This document shows, piece by piece, positions 41,551-62,176 of a stretch of 64,000 nucleotides of DNA (the stretch's first letter is position 1; the number at the start of each line of letters is the position of its first letter). Both the position numbers and the translations under genes were made by a program. Source of the DNA: a virus. The notes under the pieces were generated by a model. It worked only from the letters and a program-made list of their open reading frames with translations, was not told where the DNA came from and ran no database searches. Location of the stretch: IMG/VR virus record IMGVR_UViG_3300043788_000101, positions 26,917-90,916 of that record. The stretch is one strand, 5' to 3'.

Positions 41551-42279
41551 ATGAGACTCAATCACGTCATCGCGATCGAAAAGGGCGTCAAGAATCAGAG
41601 CAACGTCGAGATCACTGCGGCCTACCACGAGCTGCAGAAGGTCGCGCTGTTCAGCGGCATCGCGCGCACGTACGAACCGAAGGACGAGGACGGAGACAAG
41701 TTCCCGCCCGAGCATCAGAAGGTCCAGCGGCTCGCCAACGATCTGCTCGCGTTCACCGCGACGTCGATGAGCAAGTACTGGGACATCACGCTCACGAAGG
41801 ACCGGGCCAACTGCGACGCGCGCGCCAACGTCACCGTCGACGGCAAGGTCATCCTGAAAGATGCGCCGGTCACGTTTCTCATCTTCCTCGAGAAGCAGCT
41901 CGGGGACCTCTCGACGATGGTCAAGAAACTGCCGACGCTCGACGCGGGCGAGACCTGGAAGCACGACGCGTCGACGAACGCCTACGCGACCGAGTCGAGC
42001 GAGACCATCAAGACCAAGAAGGTGCCCAAGGCCTTCGTCAAGGCGCAGGCGACCAAGGAGCACCCGGCGCAGGTCGAGACGTTCACCGAGGACATCGTCA
42101 TCGGCAAGTGGCGCACGGTCAAGTACAGCGGAGCCATCCCTGCGCAGCGCATCGCGGAGATCCTCGAGCGCATCACCAAGCTCCAGGCGGCCGTCAAGTT
42201 CGCCCGCGAGGACGCCAACTCGATCGACGTCCAAGACCTTCACATCGGAAAGACGGTCTTCGACCACCTCTTCGAGTGA
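41551..42279 (+). CDS. Uncharacterised 242-aa protein (candidate ncRNA partner)
   Basis: Strong RBS and codon bias; SGIARTYEPKDEDGD.FPPE, KLPTLD and ATKEHPAQV motifs; not TROVE-like. Confidence 0.85.
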   Translation: MRLNHVIAIEKGVKNQSNVEITAAYHELQKVALFSGIARTYEPKDEDGDKFPPEHQKVQRLANDLLAFTATSMSKYWDITLTKDRANCDARANVTVDGKVILKDAPVTFLIFLEKQLGDLSTMVKKLPTLDAGETWKHDASTNAYATESSETIKTKKVPKAFVKAQATKEHPAQVETFTEDIVIGKWRTVKYSGAIPAQRIAEILERITKLQAAVKFAREDANSIDVQDLHIGKTVFDHLFE

Positions 42280-42707
42280 CAAGATTTGCAGCGCAAGCTC
42301 AAGCTGACACGCAAGTTCAGGGTTTCTAAGCTGGAGGTTTCAGGTTCGAGTCCTGACCGGCGATCCGAGAGGTCGACACGACGTCGCTCCCCCGGGTCGC
42401 CGGAAGCTCAAAGGACGAGCGCCAGTAAGCGCCCAGTGACTCTCAAGCTCTCTGCTGCCAAGCTCAAAAGAATCGCAGGAAGCGCAATCGATCGGTGTGG
42501 AGCAGTTTTTGGTATGCGCCGGTGCAATTCCGGCAGAGCCAGCGGAGCGGGCGAACACGTCGCCTTCTGCGCTGGCTCTTAGCTCAGTTAGCAGAGCAGC
42601 CATCGTAACGATTGACTCCGCGTCTCAAGTGGCGTGCGCCTCTGGCAAAAGCGAGAAAACAGCTACCGATGGGGCGGGCCAGGCTAGTGCCCGCCTCGTC
42701 CCTTTTT
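42280..42707 (+). ncRNA. Structured RNA with two circularly permuted tRNA-like domains and CAAGCT hexamers
   Basis: Domain 1 at 42330-42426 and domain 2 at 42510-42602; each runs T-arm, closed acceptor stem, D-arm. Confidence 0.8.
42668..42707 (+). terminator. Terminator-like hairpin between the ncRNA and rtcB
   Basis: GATGGGGCGGGC / GCCCGCCTCGTC followed by CCTTTTT. Confidence 0.6.
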
Positions 42708-42723: not shown

Positions 42724-43911
42724 ATGGCAGCTGCCATCAAAGAGTGGACGAACGGCGTTCTGGTCGAGGCGTCGGCGCGCAAGCAGCTCGAAGAGACGGC
42801 GAGCCTCCACATCGTCTGGCCGCACCTCGCGGTCATGCCGGACGTTCACTGGGGGATGGGCTCGACTGTCGGCTCCGTCGTGCCGACGCGAGGCGCCATC
42901 ATCCCGGCCTGCGTGGGCGTCGACCTCGGGTGCGGCATGTCGGCCGTGCGGACGTCGCTCTCGTCGTCGGCTCTGCAGGATAACGGCCAGGCCATTCAAG
43001 ACGCGATCGAACGCGCGGTCCCGCACGGGCGCACCGATGACGGCGGGCCCAACGACCGCGGGGCCTGGCGCAACGTGCCGGACGACGTCGCGGCAACGTG
43101 GGCCGGCCTCTTCGAGACGTTCGCGACCCTGCCGCAGGCGTCGCAGAAGCTCGACACCAAGCGGCAGGCCCAGCAGCTCGGGACGCTCGGGACCGGCAAT
43201 CACTTCGTCGAGGTCTGCCTCGATGAGGCCGATCGCGTGTGGGTGATGCTTCACTCGGGCTCGCGCGGGATCGGTAACCGCATCGGCTCGACGTACATCG
43301 CGGCAGCGAAGCGTCGCTGCGAGCGCGACGGCGTGCAGCTCCCGAACAGCGATCTCGCGTGGCTGCCGGAGGGCACCCCGGAGTTTTCCGAGTACGTCGA
43401 GGCGGTCGGCTGGGCGCAGAACTACGCTCGGCTCAATCGGGAGCTGATGCAGATCCACGTCCTCTCCGCGCTCCGCTCGATGTTCCCAGACATGGGCGAC
43501 AGCTGGGCGGTCGTGTCGTGCCATCACAACTACGTCGCGCGCGAGCGGCACTTCGACGAGGACCTCTGGATCACGCGCAAGGGCGCGGTCTCCGCGAAGC
43601 TCGGGCAGCTGGGAATCATCCCGGGCGCGATGGGCAGGCGGAGCTACATCGTGCGCGGCAAGGGCAACCCGGAGAGCTTCGAGACGTGCAGCCACGGGGC
43701 TGGGCGCGTCATGAGCCGAGGAGCCGCCAAGAAGGCGATCACGCTGGAGCAGCACGCCGAGGACACGGCCGGCGTCTTCTGCCGCAAGGACGCCGACGTG
43801 CTCGACGAGAGCCCGCGGGCGTATAAATCGATCGACGCGGTCATGGCGGCGCAAACGGATCTTGTCGAGGTCGTGCATGTCTTGCGGGCCGTCGTGTGTG
43901 TAAAAGGCTAA
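42724..43911 (+). CDS. rtcB: RNA 3'-phosphate/5'-OH ligase RtcB
   Basis: MPDVH.G.G.TVGSV, VGVDLGCGM, GTLGTGNHF, HSGSRG, HHNY, SHGAGR, DESP.AYK. Confidence 0.97.
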   Translation: MAAAIKEWTNGVLVEASARKQLEETASLHIVWPHLAVMPDVHWGMGSTVGSVVPTRGAIIPACVGVDLGCGMSAVRTSLSSSALQDNGQAIQDAIERAVPHGRTDDGGPNDRGAWRNVPDDVAATWAGLFETFATLPQASQKLDTKRQAQQLGTLGTGNHFVEVCLDEADRVWVMLHSGSRGIGNRIGSTYIAAAKRRCERDGVQLPNSDLAWLPEGTPEFSEYVEAVGWAQNYARLNRELMQIHVLSALRSMFPDMGDSWAVVSCHHNYVARERHFDEDLWITRKGAVSAKLGQLGIIPGAMGRRSYIVRGKGNPESFETCSHGAGRVMSRGAAKKAITLEQHAEDTAGVFCRKDADVLDESPRAYKSIDAVMAAQTDLVEVVHVLRAVVCVKG

Positions 43912-43920
43912 AATGAGCGC

Positions 43921-44457
43921 ATGCATTCATGCATGACAGACGCCCGCGCAGCAGGCGCAAGCAAGTACTTTACTGGCCGGCCGTGCACACGCGGTCATCT
44001 CTCGGTGCGGTACGCCCAGAGTGGGTGCTGCCTGGCCTGTCAAGCGTTCCTGCAAAAGCGGGACAGGCGGACCCCGAAAGGTTCAGCCCGCAACAAGGCT
44101 TATGTGCGAATGCTTCGCGAGGAGCGGCCATGGTATTTGCTGTGGCAGTCCGCCAAGGCACGTGCCAAGGAGCGCGGCGTACTGTTCACGCTAACCGCCG
44201 CTGACGTACAAGCGGTGTGGCCTTCAGACGGGAGATGCCCAGCGCTCGGTGTCGAGCTACGTAGGAGCACCTCTGGAGACCATCGCTATGCGCCAGAGTC
44301 TCCTTCGATTGACAAGATCGTTCCTCGGCTTGGATACGTGCCCGGTAACATTGCCGTGATCAGCATGAAGGCGAACCGTCTGAAGCACGACGAAACGTCC
44401 CCGGACGCTCTGCGCCTCGTCGCAGACTGGATCGAGCGCGTCTGCGTGAAGGGCTAA
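43921..44457 (+). CDS. HNH-like homing endonuclease
   Basis: YFTG.PC..GH, CPALG, SPSIDKIVP.LGYVPGNI.VIS..ANR.K. Confidence 0.85.
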   Translation: MHSCMTDARAAGASKYFTGRPCTRGHLSVRYAQSGCCLACQAFLQKRDRRTPKGSARNKAYVRMLREERPWYLLWQSAKARAKERGVLFTLTAADVQAVWPSDGRCPALGVELRRSTSGDHRYAPESPSIDKIVPRLGYVPGNIAVISMKANRLKHDETSPDALRLVADWIERVCVKG

Positions 44458-44504
44458 ACTTTCCCCTTGCGCTCTTTCCAGAGCCGTGCAAGGCTCAACC
44501 CGTC

Positions 44505-44612
44505 ATGACCAGTCGCCCGACACGAATTGCAGGCAGGACGCATCGGCAGTACGCCGAAACGTCAGCCTGCGCCGCGTTTGGCGATAAGTCCAATCCGGTG
44601 TGGGCCATGTAA
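44505..44612 (+). CDS. Putative 35-aa leader peptide of the tRNA operon
   Basis: MTSRPTRIAG...NPVWAM*; follows TTGCGC-N17-AAGGT-like box (AAGGCT); stop abuts the attenuator. Confidence 0.6.
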   Translation: MTSRPTRIAGRTHRQYAETSACAAFGDKSNPVWAM

Positions 44613-44676
44613 GCGCGGGCTCCTTTCGACTTCAACCGAGCCCGCGCCTCTCAGAGACCGCGGGCTCTTTTCGTTT
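44613..44676 (+). promoter_or_regulatory. Transcription attenuator (antiterminator / terminator)
   Basis: GCGCGGGCTC (44613-22), GAGCCCGCGC (44638-47), CGCGGGCTC (44659-67), then TTTTCGTTT. Confidence 0.75.
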
Positions 44677-44678
44677 CT

Positions 44679-44761
44679 GCATCTCGATCAGCACAAGGGT
44701 ATGTGTGGCGCGTTGTAACCGCGTTGTCTTTGACGGAGCCGTTCGACTCGGCCGGGGTGCA
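44679..44761 (+). tRNA. tRNA-Tyr(GTA)
   Basis: GCATCTC/GGGGTGC acceptor, loop TTGTAAC, long variable arm. Confidence 0.7.
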
Positions 44762-44816
44762 CGGAGGACAAGACGATGAAACTCAAACCGCAGGCGCTCG
44801 GAGCGCACAACCGAGA

Positions 44817-44888
44817 GGAGGCGTAACTCAAGCAGCAGAGACCGAGCTTTTACCTCGCGTGATCTCCGTGCAAGTCGGAGCGCCTCCA
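44817..44888 (+). tRNA. tRNA-Lys(TTT)
   Basis: GGAGGCG/CGCCTCC, loop CTTTTAC. Confidence 0.75.
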
Positions 44889-44896
44889 CGACACGC

Positions 44897-44968
44897 GCGA
44901 TGCTGATGTATCGGTTCGCATAGCAGATTCTTACTCTGTCCGGCTCGGTTCGATTCCGAGGCATCGCA
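44897..44968 (+). tRNA. tRNA-Lys(CTT)
   Basis: GCGATGC/GCATCGC, loop TTCTTAC. Confidence 0.75.
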
Positions 44969-44973
44969 CTCAC

Positions 44974-45045
44974 TGGGGTCCGTCTTGGAGACCGACAACG
45001 CTCTGAACGTTGCGCGCGAGAGTCCGATTCTCTCGACCCCATCCA
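44974..45045 (+). tRNA. tRNA-Gln(CTG)
   Basis: TGGGGTC/GACCCCA, loop CTCTGAA, encoded CCA. Confidence 0.75.
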
Positions 45046-45076
45046 CGACGCACAAGGCGTCGACGTTCTTTGAAAA
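45046..45076 (+). promoter_or_regulatory. boxB-like hairpin plus boxA antitermination element
   Basis: CGACGC-ACAAG-GCGTCG then GTTCTTTGAAAA. Confidence 0.6.
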
Positions 45077-45157
45077 CCTGACGACCCCTCGACGCGCACT
45101 TCGGTGCGGCGGTCCCGGTCGACGACACGACGCGCGAGTGAAGTAGCTCGCGCACTT

Positions 45158-45230
45158 TGCAGGGAAGGCCAAGTGGTGAGCCGAATAGCTGTTAACTATT
45201 TGCGAGCGGGTTCGAGCCCCGCCCCTGCAG
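45158..45230 (+). tRNA. tRNA-Asn(GTT)
   Basis: TGCAGGG/CCCTGCA, loop CTGTTAA. Confidence 0.85.
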
Positions 45231-45235
45231 CGAAC

Positions 45236-45307
45236 GCCCAGAGGTTCCAGCGAACAGCACCGTTTCGTATTCGGTGCAGCTCGAGGCAGCATCGAGTCTG
45301 GGCTCCA
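45236..45307 (+). tRNA. tRNA-Thr(CGT), atypical
   Basis: GCCCAGA/TCTGGGC, loop TTCGTAT, T-loop GGCAGCA, CCA. Confidence 0.65.
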
Positions 45308-45308
45308 C

Positions 45309-45385
45309 GTCGCATTCGTCTAGCAGGCCCAGGACGCCAGATTCTCAATCCGGCAACACGAGTTCAACTCTCGTATGCGACGCCA
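45309..45385 (+). tRNA. tRNA-Glu(CTC)
   Basis: GTCGCAT/ATGCGAC, loop TTCTCAA, CCA. Confidence 0.85.
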
Positions 45386-45386
45386 G

Positions 45387-45458
45387 GCCTCGTTCGTCTA
45401 CCAGCTAGGATGCTGCGTTTTCACCGCGGCGAAGCGGGCGCGACACCCGCACGAGGCA
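45387..45458 (+). tRNA. tRNA-Glu(TTC)
   Basis: GCCTCGT/ACGAGGC, loop TTTTCAC. Confidence 0.75.
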
Positions 45459-46170
45459 CCTTCGGCTGACGCTTCCTTGGGGCATGTCCGAGCCGCGAGA
45501 GCAGATACTTCTTCACGGCGTTGTCTGACATACCAAGTCTTTTGGCGACCGCTCGGTAGCTCGTCATCGAGACTTCGATGGCCAACACGTCCGCTGGCGG
45601 CCAGACGATCTTCTGGTGGCGTCCTCCGTCACACTTGGCGCATCTAGTGGATGAGCGAAAGATGGGATTTCCGCAGTCCACACATCTATTCTTCGGCCTA
45701 GAGTAACGACCCTTCAAAGCGTTTCCCGCAAAGTTTTTCGTCTGCGAGTGACAGTTCGGGCATAGAATTCGGAGATTCAAAAGACGATTGTCTGTCGGGC
45801 ACCCGTTGACATGATCCATCTGCAGGGTCAGCGGCTCGTCATTCCACACCGGGCCGAGACCGCACATCACACAGCGTTCCTCAAGCAGTCCCTCTCGGAT
45901 AAGGCGACGACGTAAAGTAGGACCGCCAGTGCCAGACGCGTTCTCTACGAGAAGCGATGAAGTCGGGCGCTTCTTTGGGTCAACGGATCGACCATGCGCC
46001 TTCCCAACGAAGTGGAGCGTACTCAAGTGCAGACGTCGTATATGACAACTGATGTTTGCGTAGTTTCCTGGGCTGACTGACAGCCCGAGCGAACGAAGCA
46101 CGTCCGACTTCGTTACGCAGGCCGCCACGGCGTGGCGTAACTGGTCGTCAGACCATCGTCTCTTAGACAT
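45421..46170 (-). CDS. HNH homing endonuclease inside the tRNA array
   Basis: LQMDHVNG...DNRL.NLRILCPNCHSQT. Confidence 0.9.
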   Translation of the reverse strand: MSKRRWSDDQLRHAVAACVTKSDVLRSLGLSVSPGNYANISCHIRRLHLSTLHFVGKAHGRSVDPKKRPTSSLLVENASGTGGPTLRRRLIREGLLEERCVMCGLGPVWNDEPLTLQMDHVNGCPTDNRLLNLRILCPNCHSQTKNFAGNALKGRYSRPKNRCVDCGNPIFRSSTRCAKCDGGRHQKIVWPPADVLAIEVSMTSYRAVAKRLGMSDNAVKKYLLSRLGHAPRKRQPKVPRAGVAPASPR

Positions 46171-46176
46171 TGACTA

Positions 46177-46206
46177 AATGTACCGCACTGACGTAATGCG
46201 TGTCAA
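46177..46206 (-). promoter_or_regulatory. Promoter of the HNH gene, probably leaderless
   Basis: TTGACA-N18-TACATT-N6-ATG. Confidence 0.65.
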
Positions 46207-46208
46207 TC

Positions 46209-46281
46209 GGCTTGCGAGCGAGTGGGGTCATCGCGGCCCACTGAAAATGGGCAGAATTCCGTTCAACTCGGAAGCAAGCCA
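46209..46281 (+). tRNA. tRNA-Phe(GAA)
   Basis: GGCTTGC/GCAAGCC, loop CTGAAAA. Confidence 0.8.
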
Positions 46282-46282
46282 C

Positions 46283-46358
46283 CGGAGCCTAGCCTAGCAG
46301 TCCAGGCACTTGTTTCGGGAACAAGACCAGGCGGGTGCGACTCCCGCGGCTCCGACCA
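46283..46358 (+). tRNA. tRNA-Pro(CGG)
   Basis: CGGAGCC/GGCTCCG, loop TTCGGGA, CCA. Confidence 0.85.
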
Positions 46359-46427
46359 GCGTGTAGCAAAGTGGCCATGCACTCGCTTTGGGAGCGAGAG
46401 ACGTCCGTCCGAATCGGACCACGCTGA
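46357..46427 (+). tRNA. tRNA-Pro(TGG)
   Basis: CAGCGTG/CACGCTG, loop TTTGGGA. Confidence 0.8.
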
Positions 46428-46433
46428 CTGTAT

Positions 46434-46506
46434 GGTGTTCGTGTTGTAGTGGTCTGCATGGCTGGATGTGACCCAGCCGGTACGGGTCCGATCCCCGTCG
46501 AACACC
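46434..46506 (+). tRNA. tRNA-His(GTG)
   Basis: G-1 plus GTGTTCG/CGAACAC, C discriminator, loop ATGTGAC. Confidence 0.8.
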
Positions 46507-46510
46507 CTAT

Positions 46511-46582
46511 CTGCTCGTCCTGCCGGACGCAGGCGACTCGCTCCTATCGAGTTCGTGCTGGGTCCGACTCCCAGCGAGCAGA
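46511..46582 (+). tRNA. tRNA-Arg(CCT)
   Basis: CTGCTCG/CGAGCAG, loop CTCCTAT. Confidence 0.7.
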
Positions 46583-46592
46583 CAAAACGTTT

Positions 46593-46665
46593 GCCGTCAT
46601 TGTGCCACTGGCTGTGGCAGGCCGGTTGTCTCCCGGTTGAGCCGGATCGAAACCGGATGGCGGCG
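46593..46665 (+). tRNA. tRNA-Asp(GTC)
   Basis: GCCGTCA/TGGCGGC, loop TTGTCTC, G discriminator. Confidence 0.7.
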
Positions 46666-46671
46666 CCGCGT

Positions 46672-46743
46672 GCGCCTCAGGTCATGGTGACCAATTTGGC
46701 TCCAAACCAATAGGCGTCGGTTCGACTCCGACGGGGCGTGCCA
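46672..46743 (+). tRNA. tRNA-Trp(CCA)
   Basis: GCGCCTC/GGGGCGT, loop CTCCAAA, CCA. Confidence 0.8.
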
Positions 46744-46744
46744 C

Positions 46745-46815
46745 GGGCTGTTCGTCCAACGCGAAGACGCTGCTCTTGCAAAGCAGAGATGAGGGTTGAA
46801 CTCCCTCACGGTCCA
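46745..46815 (+). tRNA. tRNA-Ala(TGC)
   Basis: GGGCTGT/ACGGTCC with G3:U70, loop CTTGCAA. Confidence 0.85.
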
Positions 46816-46819
46816 CAAT

Positions 46820-46889
46820 GCCGTTCACGCCGTGGAGGCGAGCAGCCGTTGGTATCGGTTGCGATGGGTTTCGATCACCCAGAGCGGCT
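46820..46889 (+). tRNA. tRNA-Thr(GGT)
   Basis: GCCGTTC/GAGCGGC, loop TTGGTAT. Confidence 0.7.
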
Positions 46890-46891
46890 CC

Positions 46892-46959
46892 GCCGATTCG
46901 TCCAAGGGACAGCGGGAGCTTGTATCTCCCTCGGGCCAGGGCAGTACTGGCAGTCGGCT
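46892..46959 (+). tRNA. tRNA-Thr(TGT), atypical
   Basis: GCCGATT/AGTCGGC, loop CTTGTAT, T-loop GGCAGTA. Confidence 0.65.
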
Positions 46960-46965
46960 CTAGTT

Positions 46966-47037
46966 GCGGGTGACGCTCAGCAGCGGGTGCGCCTTCCAAG
47001 CGTTACCGACCGTGGGCAGCACACGGCATCCGCTCCA
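46966..47037 (+). tRNA. tRNA-Gly(TCC), atypical
   Basis: GCGGGTG/CATCCGC, loop CTTCCAA, T-loop GGCAGCA, TCCA. Confidence 0.7.
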
Positions 47038-47038
47038 C

Positions 47039-47109
47039 GCGGGGTATTCGGAAAGTGACGAGGCTTGAGTGCCACTCAAGCATTGCCGGAGCATTACCGG
47101 CACCCCGCT
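47039..47109 (+). tRNA. tRNA-Gly(GCC)
   Basis: GCGGGGT/ACCCCGC, loop GTGCCAC. Confidence 0.7.
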
Positions 47110-47114
47110 CGAGT

Positions 47115-47186
47115 GAGCCCATGATCAAGCGGTCATCGTGCGCAGCAAACGCACGCGGCTCGGTGCGATTCCGAGTGGGCTCTCCA
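47115..47186 (+). tRNA. tRNA-Cys(GCA) with A33
   Basis: GAGCCCA/TGGGCTC, loop CAGCAAA, U discriminator, CCA. Confidence 0.7.
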
Positions 47187-47187
47187 C

Positions 47188-47259
47188 GCTCTCGTCCTGG
47201 CAGCCAGGCATGCCGCTTCTATCGGCGTTGGCTCCGTGCAACTCGGAGCGAGAGCACCA
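47188..47259 (+). tRNA. tRNA-Arg(TCT)
   Basis: GCTCTCG/CGAGAGC, loop CTTCTAT, CCA. Confidence 0.7.
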
Positions 47260-47260
47260 T

Positions 47261-47330
47261 CTGCCTGTCCGGTGGATCCGGGCCAGTCCCTCCGAAGGAT
47301 CGGTTCGCGGTTCGACTCCGCGCAGGCAGA
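47261..47330 (+). tRNA. tRNA-Arg(CCG)
   Basis: CTGCCTG/CAGGCAG, loop CTCCGAA. Confidence 0.7.
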
Positions 47331-47336
47331 CAACTC

Positions 47337-47406
47337 GGGCTCGCCAGTGGACCTGGCGGAGACGCTACGAACGTTTCTTGCGAAGATTCGATTTCTTCCG
47401 AGCCCA
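47337..47406 (+). tRNA. tRNA-Arg(ACG)
   Basis: GGGCTCG/CGAGCCC, loop CTACGAA. Confidence 0.75.
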
Positions 47407-47407
47407 C

Positions 47408-47481
47408 TGCAGCGTGGAGAAGTGGCCTATCTCGCGTGGCTCATAACCACGAGACCTCTGGTTCAAATCCAGACGCTGCTA
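47408..47481 (+). tRNA. tRNA-Met(CAT), initiator-like
   Basis: 1:72 mismatch, loop CTCATAA, T-loop TTCAAAT. Confidence 0.8.
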
Positions 47482-47482
47482 C

Positions 47483-47550
47483 GCCGGCGCCGCGTGGCGC
47501 GAAGCGGTTTTCATACGACCGCGACGACGGTCCGATTCCGTCCGCCGGCA
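47483..47550 (+). tRNA. tRNA with CAT anticodon (elongator Met or Ile2)
   Basis: GCCGGCG/CGCCGGC, loop TTCATAC. Confidence 0.65.
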
Positions 47551-47554
47551 CGAC

Positions 47555-47627
47555 CTCTCGCGAGTGAGCTAGCGAACACCGCGCTCCTACAAAGCGATGC
47601 CGCAGGGTGCAATCCCCTGGCGAGAGA
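47555..47627 (+). tRNA. tRNA-Val(TAC) with C33
   Basis: CTCTCGC/GCGAGAG, loop CCTACAA. Confidence 0.7.
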
Positions 47628-47628
47628 C

Positions 47629-47699
47629 CCGAGCGTGCGTTCGGTCAACGCAGGATCCCTTATAAGAATCCGATTCGGGTCCGACTCCCGACGCTCGGA
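47629..47699 (+). tRNA. tRNA-Ile(TAT)
   Basis: CCGAGCG/CGCTCGG, loop CTTATAA. Confidence 0.6.
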
Positions 47700-47700
47700 C

Positions 47701-47774
47701 GCGGGACGAGTGAGCCAGTGAACACACCATCTCGACAAGATGGCCAATGCTCGGAGCGACACCGAGGTCCCGCA
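47701..47774 (+). tRNA. tRNA-Val(GAC) with C33
   Basis: GCGGGAC/GTCCCGC, loop TCGACAA. Confidence 0.7.
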
Positions 47775-47778
47775 CAAC

Positions 47779-47853
47779 GCGCCATGACGGGTCGGTTACC
47801 ATTTCGATCCTGATAAGATCGGAGACCAGTTTCGACTACTGGATGGCGCACCA
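47779..47853 (+). tRNA. tRNA-Ile(GAT)
   Basis: GCGCCAT/ATGGCGC, loop CTGATAA, CCA. Confidence 0.8.
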
Positions 47854-47872
47854 ACGTGCTAGACGACACCTC

Positions 47873-48199
47873 ATGAAGACGAGGCCGAGCACGACGCCAC
47901 TTGACCCCGGCGTACTCAAAGCCGCAGAGGCATGGGACGCAATCGCACGCATGCACGGCTATAACGAGATGGCCAAAGAAGCGAAGACGTTAGGCCAGAG
48001 AGTCTACTGCCGTATGGCAAGGGATGCCGCGTGCGAGGAGGCGAAGCAGCTCGGCGCGGACATTACGCGCACGGAGGTCGGTGGCGATGCCGTGATGACC
48101 ATCGACGAGGTAGCGCCGCACATCGTCTTCAAAGCGGACGACATCGAGATGATGCGCGAGGCCGTCCGAGTATTTGACCTCGAGCACCCGAAGCCGTAA
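47873..48199 (+). CDS. Hypothetical protein
   Basis: ORF between the tRNAs and an HNH gene. Confidence 0.5.
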   Translation: MKTRPSTTPLDPGVLKAAEAWDAIARMHGYNEMAKEAKTLGQRVYCRMARDAACEEAKQLGADITRTEVGGDAVMTIDEVAPHIVFKADDIEMMREAVRVFDLEHPKP

Positions 48200-48212
48200 C
48201 CTTTGCCGCGTC

Positions 48213-48740
48213 ATGGAACCTCGAACGCTCGTGCTCACGCCCCAGATGGCGCCCATCCGCATCGCGACGTGGGAGGAGTCGGTCGTCCTCGTCTGGCAGG
48301 GCAAGGCTGACGCGCTCGAACTCTACGAGGCGACGGTGTCCTCGCCGAGCGTGACGCTGCAGGTCCCAGCGGTGGTGCGGCTGCACAAGTCGGTGCACAT
48401 GCACAAAAATGGAGTAAAGTTCTCGCGCGTGAACGTGCTATCTCGCGATGGCCTCCGTTGCTGCTACTGCGGCGAGCGCAAGAAGGCGCGTGAACTGAAC
48501 TACGACCACGTCATCCCGCGGTCGCGCGGCGGTAAGACGACGTGGACTAATATCGTCACAGCTTGTTTGGCGGACAACCGCCGCAAGGGCAACCGCACGC
48601 CGCAGGAGGCCGGGATGCGGATGCACTTCAAGCCGTACGTTCCGACGACGCTGGTGCGTCAGCAACCGCTACTCTTTCTCATCGGCGATGCGCCGGGGCA
48701 GTGGGGTCCGTACCTCGGCGAGGCGGCTCAGAGCGCGTAA
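48213..48740 (+). CDS. HNH (McrA-like) endonuclease of the type often found with tRNA arrays
   Basis: PAVVRL...FSR.NV..RD..RC.YCG...DHVIPRSRGG.TTW.NIVTAC...NR.KG. Confidence 0.9.
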   Translation: MEPRTLVLTPQMAPIRIATWEESVVLVWQGKADALELYEATVSSPSVTLQVPAVVRLHKSVHMHKNGVKFSRVNVLSRDGLRCCYCGERKKARELNYDHVIPRSRGGKTTWTNIVTACLADNRRKGNRTPQEAGMRMHFKPYVPTTLVRQQPLLFLIGDAPGQWGPYLGEAAQSA

Positions 48741-48747
48741 GATTTCT

Positions 48748-48833
48748 GGAGCCTAGTGGGCAATGGCGCCCAACCCGGTTCGAACCCGGGACCACGGTGA
48801 GGAATCGTGACTGTTCGATCCAGTTAGGCTCCG
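48748..48833 (+). tRNA. tRNA-Ser(CGA)
   Basis: GGAGCCT/AGGCTCC, loop TTCGAAC, long variable arm. Confidence 0.75.
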
Positions 48834-48839
48834 CAACTT

Positions 48840-60905: not shown

Positions 60906-61157
60906 TCAGGCCCTCTTTGCCGCCCTGGCGCGGGGTACCGCGTCCGCGATGGCCTTGTGAGAGCCGATGTAGTGGTAGATGGTGCGCCGGGAGACCTCGA
61001 GGTCTTTGGCCGCTGCGCTGAGGTCGCCATAGCAGGCCATGATGGCGTCCACGACGATGGCGATCGCCTCCTTGGGCTCGGTCATGAAGCGGAGTTTGAG
61101 GCGACGGCTGCGCTCTGAGGAGAAGTGGCCGCCGAGGACGTGCTTGGGTGTGGTCAT
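60906..61157 (-). CDS. Fis-like HTH protein
   Basis: GDLSAAAKDLEVSRRTIY. Confidence 0.7.
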   Translation of the reverse strand: MTTPKHVLGGHFSSERSRRLKLRFMTEPKEAIAIVVDAIMACYGDLSAAAKDLEVSRRTIYHYIGSHKAIADAVPRARAAKRA

Positions 61158-62176
61158 CGCATTGGCTCCTGGGTCATCTCGCCGTAGACGTTCGGGAAGT
61201 CGCGGACGCGCAGGTCGTCCGGCCACTCGCTCGGCTCGCCTCCGTGGCCATCACGTATAGACGCCATTGGCGAACCGTCAAAGTAGATTGGCCGAGCGCC
61301 GAGTTGCTTCACGAACACGCGAGAGGTCGCCGCCGCGGGCTCGCGTGAAGCGGCCAGGAGGTCGCGCGCCCAGTCGATGCGGAACGGCCGAGCCTTGTGC
61401 CCACTCTCTCCGCCCACGATGACCCAGTCGAGCCCGCGCTCCCATGTGCCGCCAGCGCCGGCGATCTCAGGGTGCGGGTGCTGCAAGCGGCGATCGTCCG
61501 TCGTGCGCAGTGTCCACTTGAGATACGGCAAAAAGTCGACGGGGCCGAGCGCGGGCTCGTAGCTCACGAACCGGACCGCGGCGGGCGACGCAAGGAGCGG
61601 CGGGATTCGCTCGTCGGCGTACTGCTGACTCTCGACGCTCACGCCGAGCCAAACGTTCGGGAGTGGCCAAGGCATCTCAAAGCGCACCTTGTCGTGCCAG
61701 GCATCGCCGTCTTGCATCATCTGTCCGGCGAGCACACCTAGCCGCTCGCGCATCTCCGTGCGGCCAGCCGCCATGTAGCGAGCGAGCCTAGCGGCGCGTT
61801 TGGTGAGAATTTGGAAGGTGTGACCGTAGTTGCGGTCGTGCATCGCGCACACGGCCATGACGGCGAACACGCGATCGATATCGTGGTCCGCGAGACCTTC
61901 GTGGAATAGATCGCTCATACTATTGACGAAGATGCGGCGACCGCGACGCCAGCGGATAGGATCTAGCAGATGCGACGGCACGAGTGCGACCTTACGCGTC
62001 CAGCGCGGACCGTGCGCCGTGTGCTCCGCGAAACCGTAGTACGGGAGCCCCGGCCTCGAGAACCTAGCGGCCTGCGACTCGGCGTAGCACGACTCGCAGC
62101 CAGGCGAGACACGTGAGCACCCGCGGATGGGATTCCAGCTCGCCTCGGTCCACTGGATGTCGGACTTGGCGCCCAT
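61154..62176 (-). CDS. Phage Gp37/Gp68 (DUF5131) family protein
   Basis: IQWT..SWNP..GCSRVSPGC..CYA, FVNSMSDLFH, WVIVGGESG. Confidence 0.92.
   Translation of the reverse strand: MGAKSDIQWTEASWNPIRGCSRVSPGCESCYAESQAARFSRPGLPYYGFAEHTAHGPRWTRKVALVPSHLLDPIRWRRGRRIFVNSMSDLFHEGLADHDIDRVFAVMAVCAMHDRNYGHTFQILTKRAARLARYMAAGRTEMRERLGVLAGQMMQDGDAWHDKVRFEMPWPLPNVWLGVSVESQQYADERIPPLLASPAAVRFVSYEPALGPVDFLPYLKWTLRTTDDRRLQHPHPEIAGAGGTWERGLDWVIVGGESGHKARPFRIDWARDLLAASREPAAATSRVFVKQLGARPIYFDGSPMASIRDGHGGEPSEWPDDLRVRDFPNVYGEMTQEPMR

Follow-up and report, generated by a model that had tools for sequence, protein, structure and literature searches.

What is the role of the 221-nt spacer (from 44458, plus strand) that lies between a homing-endonuclease gene and a large tRNA array in this phage genome? 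The window that we analysed is a stretch of 64,000 nucleotides, bases 26917-90916 of an IMG/VR record of 90,916 bp with 118-bp terminal repeats and 63% G+C. The original prediction described the spacer as a leader-peptide attenuator, with a promoter, a 35-codon ORF rich in uncommon codons and, directly after the stop codon, three complementary segments whose alternative pairings would allow transcription of the tRNA genes only under translational stress. The ORF (ATG at 44505, TAA at 44610-12, plus strand), segments 1 to 3 and the T-tract were all found where they had been placed. We consider it reasonably probable that the element, which stands where the phage tRNA array begins, is a bistable intrinsic terminator and, in the broad meaning of the term, a transcription attenuator.

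By its portal protein, the closest phage relative is an uncultivated fragment of 62 kb (86% identity), which has no tRNA and no similar DNA. The nearest cultured phage by portal is Myxococcus phage Mx4, with 36% identity. Upstream of the spacer, and on the same plus strand, are a DUF7873 gene (41551-42279), rtcB (42724-43911) and an HNH homing-endonuclease gene (43921-44457) with matches to PHROG endonucleases. The last 19 nt of the HNH ORF (44439-57) match conserved rtcB 3' ends at many loci, and this terminus encodes the conserved RtcB end VCVKG followed by the stop codon. Alignments of the RtcB of this phage with its homologues end at residue 380 of 395, and the present rtcB has a substitute C-terminus (43866-43911). 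The rtcB/HNH junction is hence consistent with a homing-endonuclease insertion that rebuilt the end of the gene. Since it is the ancestral 3' end of rtcB that closes the HNH ORF, the spacer is the native sequence downstream of rtcB. No relatives of the HNH protein were found in IMG/VR; the best RtcB relatives in IMG/VR and metagenomes have 67-74% identity, and the spacer is present in none of them. Between the DUF7873 gene and rtcB, there are also two weak plus-strand matches to the Rfam family YrlA, a bacterial Y RNA-like tRNA mimic, at 42332-42424 (27.7 bits, E 7e-4) and at 42517-42597 (18.4 bits), both compared with a gathering score of 69. They may represent Y-RNA-like modules of an RtcB RNA-repair operon; no Ro60/TROVE gene was found among the window proteins scanned.

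The switch itself is located in the 3' part of the spacer, on the plus strand. Segment 1 (GCGCGGGCTC, 44613-44622) directly follows the TAA of the ORF and forms the 5' arm of the antiterminator. Segment 2 (GAGCCCGCGC, 44638-44647), with the 8-nt core GAGCCCGC, is common to both hairpins and serves in the antiterminator as 3' arm, in the terminator as 5' arm. Segment 3 (CGCGGGCTC, 44659-44667) is the 3' arm of the terminator and, together with segment 2 and the T-tract (TTTTCGTTTCT, 44668-44678), makes up an intrinsic terminator. Pairing of segments 1 and 2 gives 10 perfect bp (-21.3 kcal/mol), and pairing of segments 2 and 3 gives 9 bp plus an inner 3 bp (-19.5 to -20.9 kcal/mol). The locus has two of the features expected of a leader-peptide attenuator, namely exclusive hairpins with a common segment and a GC hairpin plus U-tract directly upstream of the tRNA genes. 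A further, weak and G.U-rich complement of segments 1 and 3, which we denote segment 0' (GGGCCAUGU, 44602-44610, plus strand), overlaps the last codons and stop of the ORF and is present in the lowest-energy structures of the terminator state. A stronger fourth segment inside the ORF, AGCCTGCGC (44564-72), was considered as a partner of segment 1 and rejected, its folding probability being at most 0.01.

In order to have a measure of how unusual this arrangement is, we scanned the 90,916-bp genome for the pattern of a motif, its reverse complement and the motif again (k=8). Segments 1-2-3 are the sole site, and first-order Markov simulations give a chance expectation of 0.1 site per genome. 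The terminator half was confirmed as being of canonical type: the identical arm followed by TTTTCG is found at gene ends in 5 unrelated viral contigs of IMG/VR, which makes the 2:3 hairpin a canonical terminator and segment 1 the unusual addition. The motifs, promoter or other, that the spacer has in common with the rest of the genome are not longer than 10-12-mers. Three sites of the minus-strand gene 61154-62176 (61333-43, 61429-40 and 61548-59) carry, in both orientations, 10-11-mers with the sequence of segment 2 (CGAGCCCGCG(C)) and segment 1 (AGCGCGGGCTC); these may have arisen by chance in GC-rich coding sequence.

Thermodynamic predictions for the switch vary with sequence context. When the RNA was made to end at segment 3, the terminator had a share of 0.02 to 0.47 at equilibrium, varying with the amount of upstream RNA included. 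Pairing of segment 0' with segment 1 or 3 gives the terminator state a small energetic advantage (-28.6 vs -24.9 kcal/mol). For the change from antiterminator to terminator, the direct-path heuristic findpath gave an estimated barrier of about 12 kcal/mol in the reference and 16 kcal/mol in the diverged soil relative X4 described below. Refolding over a barrier of about 12 kcal/mol is slow compared to the time that polymerase spends on the U-tract, so that read-through is the predicted default and termination would need segment 1 to be kept unpaired. The mechanism that we propose starts with segment 2 pairing with segment 1, which is made first, to give the antiterminator; alternatively, segment 2 would pair with segment 3 and, with the U-tract, give the terminator. 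Given the near-equal hairpin energies and the high refolding barrier, the antiterminator would form first and still be in place when polymerase passes the U-tract. Transcription arriving from the rtcB/HNH side would then continue into the tRNAs by default, and termination would occur only if segment 1 were blocked from pairing during the brief time until segment 2 emerges. At the other strong terminators of the phage (24132-61 and 42668-700), there is no competitor, and the in-context pairing probability is 0.97-1.0. The latter site (42668-42705 with its tail, plus strand, -23.5 kcal/mol, followed by TTTTT; P 0.97, no competing hairpin) ends 2 nt before the rtcB Shine-Dalgarno sequence GTAGGAGG and is a second terminator adjoining the next gene within the same transcription unit as the switch. 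A terminator before tRNA-Ala was also considered as an analogous layout and rejected, as it has no competitor segment.

Comparative evidence comes from three partial relatives of the spacer (X1, X2 and X4), which are public contigs aligned on 44200-45200 with their sequences rebuilt from difference tables; they amount to one diverged low-depth contig (X4, 3.7x) and two partial ones. X4, from soil, spans 44413-44681; its divergence is about 2.6% both in the HNH gene and over 44458-44611. The region 44612-44657 has 15 substitutions and 8 indel letters, so that about half of it is changed. For the rebuilt sequence, the predicted antiterminator has 5+7 bp with an internal loop between them and the predicted terminator has 8 bp; one outer pair is changed from C-G to G-C. 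The prediction of mutually exclusive antiterminator and terminator hairpins before the tRNA array was thus upheld, with the 1:2 and 2:3 pairings computed here and both kept in this diverged relative. The segment 2 core is unchanged in X4 even though the CC of this core falls into the internal loop of the antiterminator there and has no partner, which argues for constraint from the 2:3 pairing. X4 differs from the reference downstream of 44681. The lake relative X2 is identical over 44584-44679 except for one loop base; its tRNA-Tyr is found on another contig and shows 13 differences over 92 nt. The homology of X1 begins exactly at 44458; its loop differs, and its segment 2 is GAGCCAGCGC, which gives a G.A mismatch in the 1:2 hairpin. 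Over the three relatives, the retention of both pairings is suggestive, and the alignments are likewise suggestive of the spacer being a module with breakpoints at both ends. A blastn search of 44300-45000 against 50,697 phage records gave no match, and neither did exact-pattern scans of IMG/VR for the three segments, the apical hairpin and tRNA-Lys. An Arenimonas MAG contig matching the apical 21-mer was discarded as a chance hit, since the match does not extend.

The first gene of the plus-strand array is a class II tRNA-Tyr(GUA) of 84 nt (44679-44762, plus strand), which was identified by ARAGORN at a relaxed threshold and missed both by default ARAGORN and by Rfam. It has the GUA anticodon, long variable arm, G1-C72 and A73 of a bacterial-type tRNA-Tyr, and a weak 3-bp D stem. 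In the relatives, 44710 G>A is accompanied by 44722 C>T, which compensates for it in the anticodon stem, and 44757 G>A changes U.G to U-A in the acceptor stem. These stem changes show that the gene is real. It had been expected to start 2 nt after the U-tract; this has to be corrected, as its start at 44679 directly adjoins the end of the T-tract at 44678. There is no room for a promoter before the tRNAs. The plus-strand array extends over 44679-48834, is broken by two HNH genes (45421-46170, minus strand, and 48174-48740) and is followed by four minus-strand tRNAs. Between 44679 and 49541, default ARAGORN counts 23 tRNAs and the relaxed threshold about 33; the Rfam gathering score is reached by only 9 tRNAs across the window. 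Many tRNAs of this region are non-canonical, and HNH genes are interspersed, three in number if the one at 43921-44457 is counted.

From 44679 on, neighbouring tRNAs are separated by 0-150 nt, and a scan of 30000-50200 gave no consensus promoter on the plus strand. The promoter originally proposed in the 5' part of the spacer (44458-44504, which also holds a small hairpin at 44470-83) consists of TTGCGC (44467-72) as -35 and AAGGCT (44490-95) as -10 on the plus strand, separated by 17 nt. It matches about 3/6 and 2/6 consensus positions, respectively (5/12), and is absent from the output of the consensus scan, so we do not retain it; on the minus strand, the same scan does give good consensus sites, both for the HNH gene and for the tRNA block encoded there. 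One variant among the contigs of the relatives has 44492 G>C. Close packing of the tRNAs and the lack of a consensus promoter together imply that expression of at least the first tRNA block passes the terminator site, which provides a reason for both hairpins to exist. A soil metatranscriptome contig of 170 nt (44800-44969) contains both tRNA-Lys genes with one difference and may stem either from expression or from DNA carried over into the library. It stops at a breakpoint between variants (44970), is uninformative on RNA ends and lies outside the leader. The homology of the relatives breaks exactly at 44458, 44679-44681 and 44970, and the slot of tRNA-Gln(CUG) (44974-45045) is occupied in X1 and X2 by other sequence of similar length. 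As judged from these alignments, the array is a mosaic of exchangeable cassettes.

It was also suggested to look for the same layout before related tRNA arrays. Both pairings are kept in X4, as described above. A tRNA lies within 1.5 kb after rtcB in 15 of 160 rtcB loci, and in 10 of these 15 the gap between rtcB and the tRNA is 0-20 nt; a hairpin plus U-tract is found in none of the 10. Among 249 tRNA genes from other loci and the window, three have a hairpin plus T-tract adjoining the 5' end, tRNA-Tyr included. These counts point to a layout that is specific to this lineage.

Control of read-through by the element in vivo is an inference, and so is any trigger that would flip it. Among single triggers, we tentatively regard a ribosome that completes the 35-codon ORF as the most likely one. 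As a sub-case of the bistable terminator, this is the ribosome-mediated leader-peptide attenuator, a possible but doubtful reading: a ribosome at the stop codon would cover segment 1 and lead to the terminator, and a slow, stalled or absent ribosome would leave the antiterminator and allow the tRNAs to be transcribed. The geometry required by such a model is present as predicted, in that the TAA at 44610-12 adjoins segment 1 with 0 nt between them and a terminating ribosome would cover 44613-22; in X4, a TAG likewise adjoins the variant arm. With read-through as the kinetic default, a factor masking segment 1 would also have a function. The ORF is preceded by a weak AAGG 10 nt before its ATG, and a few real genes of the phage have AAGG 7-12 nt before their starts, although most have GGAG, GAGG or AGGAGG at 7-12 nt and one X1 variant has AACG in place of AAGG. 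The sole Rfam match of the spacer is the Leu operon leader, which is not significant (14.6 bits, E 1.8). Persistence of the ORF and of the place of its stop (TAA to TAG) in X4, where the variable region starts, would favour translation; however, with 2.6% divergence and a 50% chance of stop retention, it carries little weight. The claim that the ORF is rich in uncommon codons is correct as a description, with a GC3 of 0.67 and a CAI of 0.454 compared to 0.638 for the genes of the phage, and it places the ORF within the lowest 3% of 35-codon windows from real genes. As an argument for a leader peptide it fails, because the small ORFs of the genome (30-45 codons, n=281) have a mean CAI of 0.436 and 38% of them reach or exceed the value of this ORF, so that being rich in rare codons amounts to looking non-coding. 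With 281 such ORFs per genome, about 0.3 would be expected by chance in a 221-nt spacer. The ORF has no run of regulatory codons and no tandem identical codons; its four Arg codons are all different (CGC, CGA, AGG, CGG), and its Thr codons are ACC, ACA, ACG and ACG. At the five sites that differ in relatives, two changes are synonymous (44519, 44528) and three are non-synonymous (44560, 44566, 44568), with no signal of purifying selection, and its divergence equals that of the flanking HNH gene at about 2.6%. Finally, the ORF lies inside a hairpin of -48.6 kcal/mol with its start at the base, and the promoter claimed for it is unsupported. By this profile, the ORF resembles chance ORFs and its role as a leader peptide is putative. 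A fixed leaky terminator without any sensor, which would set the ratio of upstream mRNA to tRNA transcript, has about the same probability as the ribosome trigger.

The hairpin just mentioned (44507-44590, plus strand) is an imperfect duplex of about 30 bp that covers most of the ORF, with a z-score of -3.7 and 0/200 shuffles as good. It is relevant to two other readings of the spacer. In one of them, which we regard as rather improbable, the whole 221-nt spacer would be a self-contained cassette for a small structured RNA, with its 3' end produced by the terminator or by RNase P cleavage at the 5' end of tRNA-Tyr, and the competing hairpin would be a part of the RNA fold and not regulatory. 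The tRNA cluster of phage T4 encodes stable RNAs (species 1 and 2) of unknown function, to which such a cassette would be similar. The whole spacer folds at -96.9 kcal/mol (z -4.8, 0/200 shuffles as good), and homology breaks exactly at its ends, upstream of 44458 in X1 and downstream of 44681 in X4, as would be expected of a module. However, the minus strand folds about equally well (z -4.5), which indicates a DNA palindrome and not a strand-specific structure; four of five substitutions in the relatives disrupt pairs of the long hairpin, which hence has no covariation support; and the spacer gave neither an Rfam family match nor a promoter. The long duplex could instead be an RNase III-type site separating the rtcB/HNH mRNA from the tRNA precursor, with the GC hairpins protecting the new 3' end and no regulated termination taking place. 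The presence of a duplex of this length, the hairpin right at the RNase P site of tRNA-Tyr and the 10 other rtcB loci with tRNAs 0-20 nt after rtcB, which suggest co-transcription and processing, are in agreement with a processing or stability element. Nevertheless, we consider it very unlikely that the spacer is nothing else, because the third copy of the arm and the survival of both pairings and of the 8-nt core in X4 would be left unexplained, and a hairpin followed by a U-tract is of the canonical terminator type. In our judgement, the RNA switch is real and probably functional.

To our knowledge, the tRNA arrays of phages are usually regarded as cargo that is co-transcribed constitutively. 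With a conserved bistable terminator at the entrance of its array, a phage would control the supply of tRNAs through transcription, or would at least meter it. Should ribosome occupancy be the trigger, viral tRNA expression would be linked to the translation state of the host, which bears on phage answers to tRNA-targeting defences. In the most far-reaching version, which is speculative and which we consider unlikely, the phage would gauge host translation speed via the 35-codon ORF and would allow its set of about 33 tRNA genes to be transcribed only if translation falls behind, e.g., after depletion of tRNAs or their cleavage by host defences. This would amount to a translation-capacity sensor wired to viral tRNA supply, beside an RtcB RNA-repair module. 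As the element is short and self-contained, it is directly testable in vitro.

We found no described attenuator before a phage tRNA array in the literature, and comparison has to be made with systems that resemble the element in part. T-box riboswitches have a long stem, then a choice between antiterminator and terminator, and a tRNA-related setting. However, the T-box family (RF00230) gave no Rfam match at E up to 10 in 44300-45500 or 44440-44770, no conserved T-box sequence or UGGN bulge was seen on reading the sequence, and the antiterminator loop here varies freely among relatives. Canonical intrinsic terminators of GC-rich phages and bacteria have the same GAGCCCGC...GCGGGCTC stem followed by TTTTCG. 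They have no upstream copy of the 3' arm, whereas segment 1 competes here for the 5' arm, and the terminator adjoins a tRNA gene and not the end of an operon. Leader-peptide attenuators that sense translation inhibition reportedly exist upstream of antibiotic-resistance genes such as mef/mel(msr), and they resemble the model of the original prediction in that a ribosome stalled in the leader ORF permits read-through of the terminator. Those systems respond to ribosomes that have bound a drug, on specific peptides, and the output is resistance genes; here, there is no known stalling motif and the output is tRNAs. The amino-acid attenuators (trpL, hisL, leuL, pheL, thrL; Rfam Leu_leader) are similar in the order of a short ORF, exclusive hairpins and then the regulated genes, in the stop codon beside the antiterminator arm and, with the weak segment 0', in the classical 1:2/3:4 vs 2:3 topology. 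The present element differs from them in having no codon run for a sensed amino acid and in gating phage tRNA genes instead of biosynthetic genes. Its putative leader ORF lies inside a long hairpin and, in the absence of translation, read-through is predicted here and not super-attenuation.
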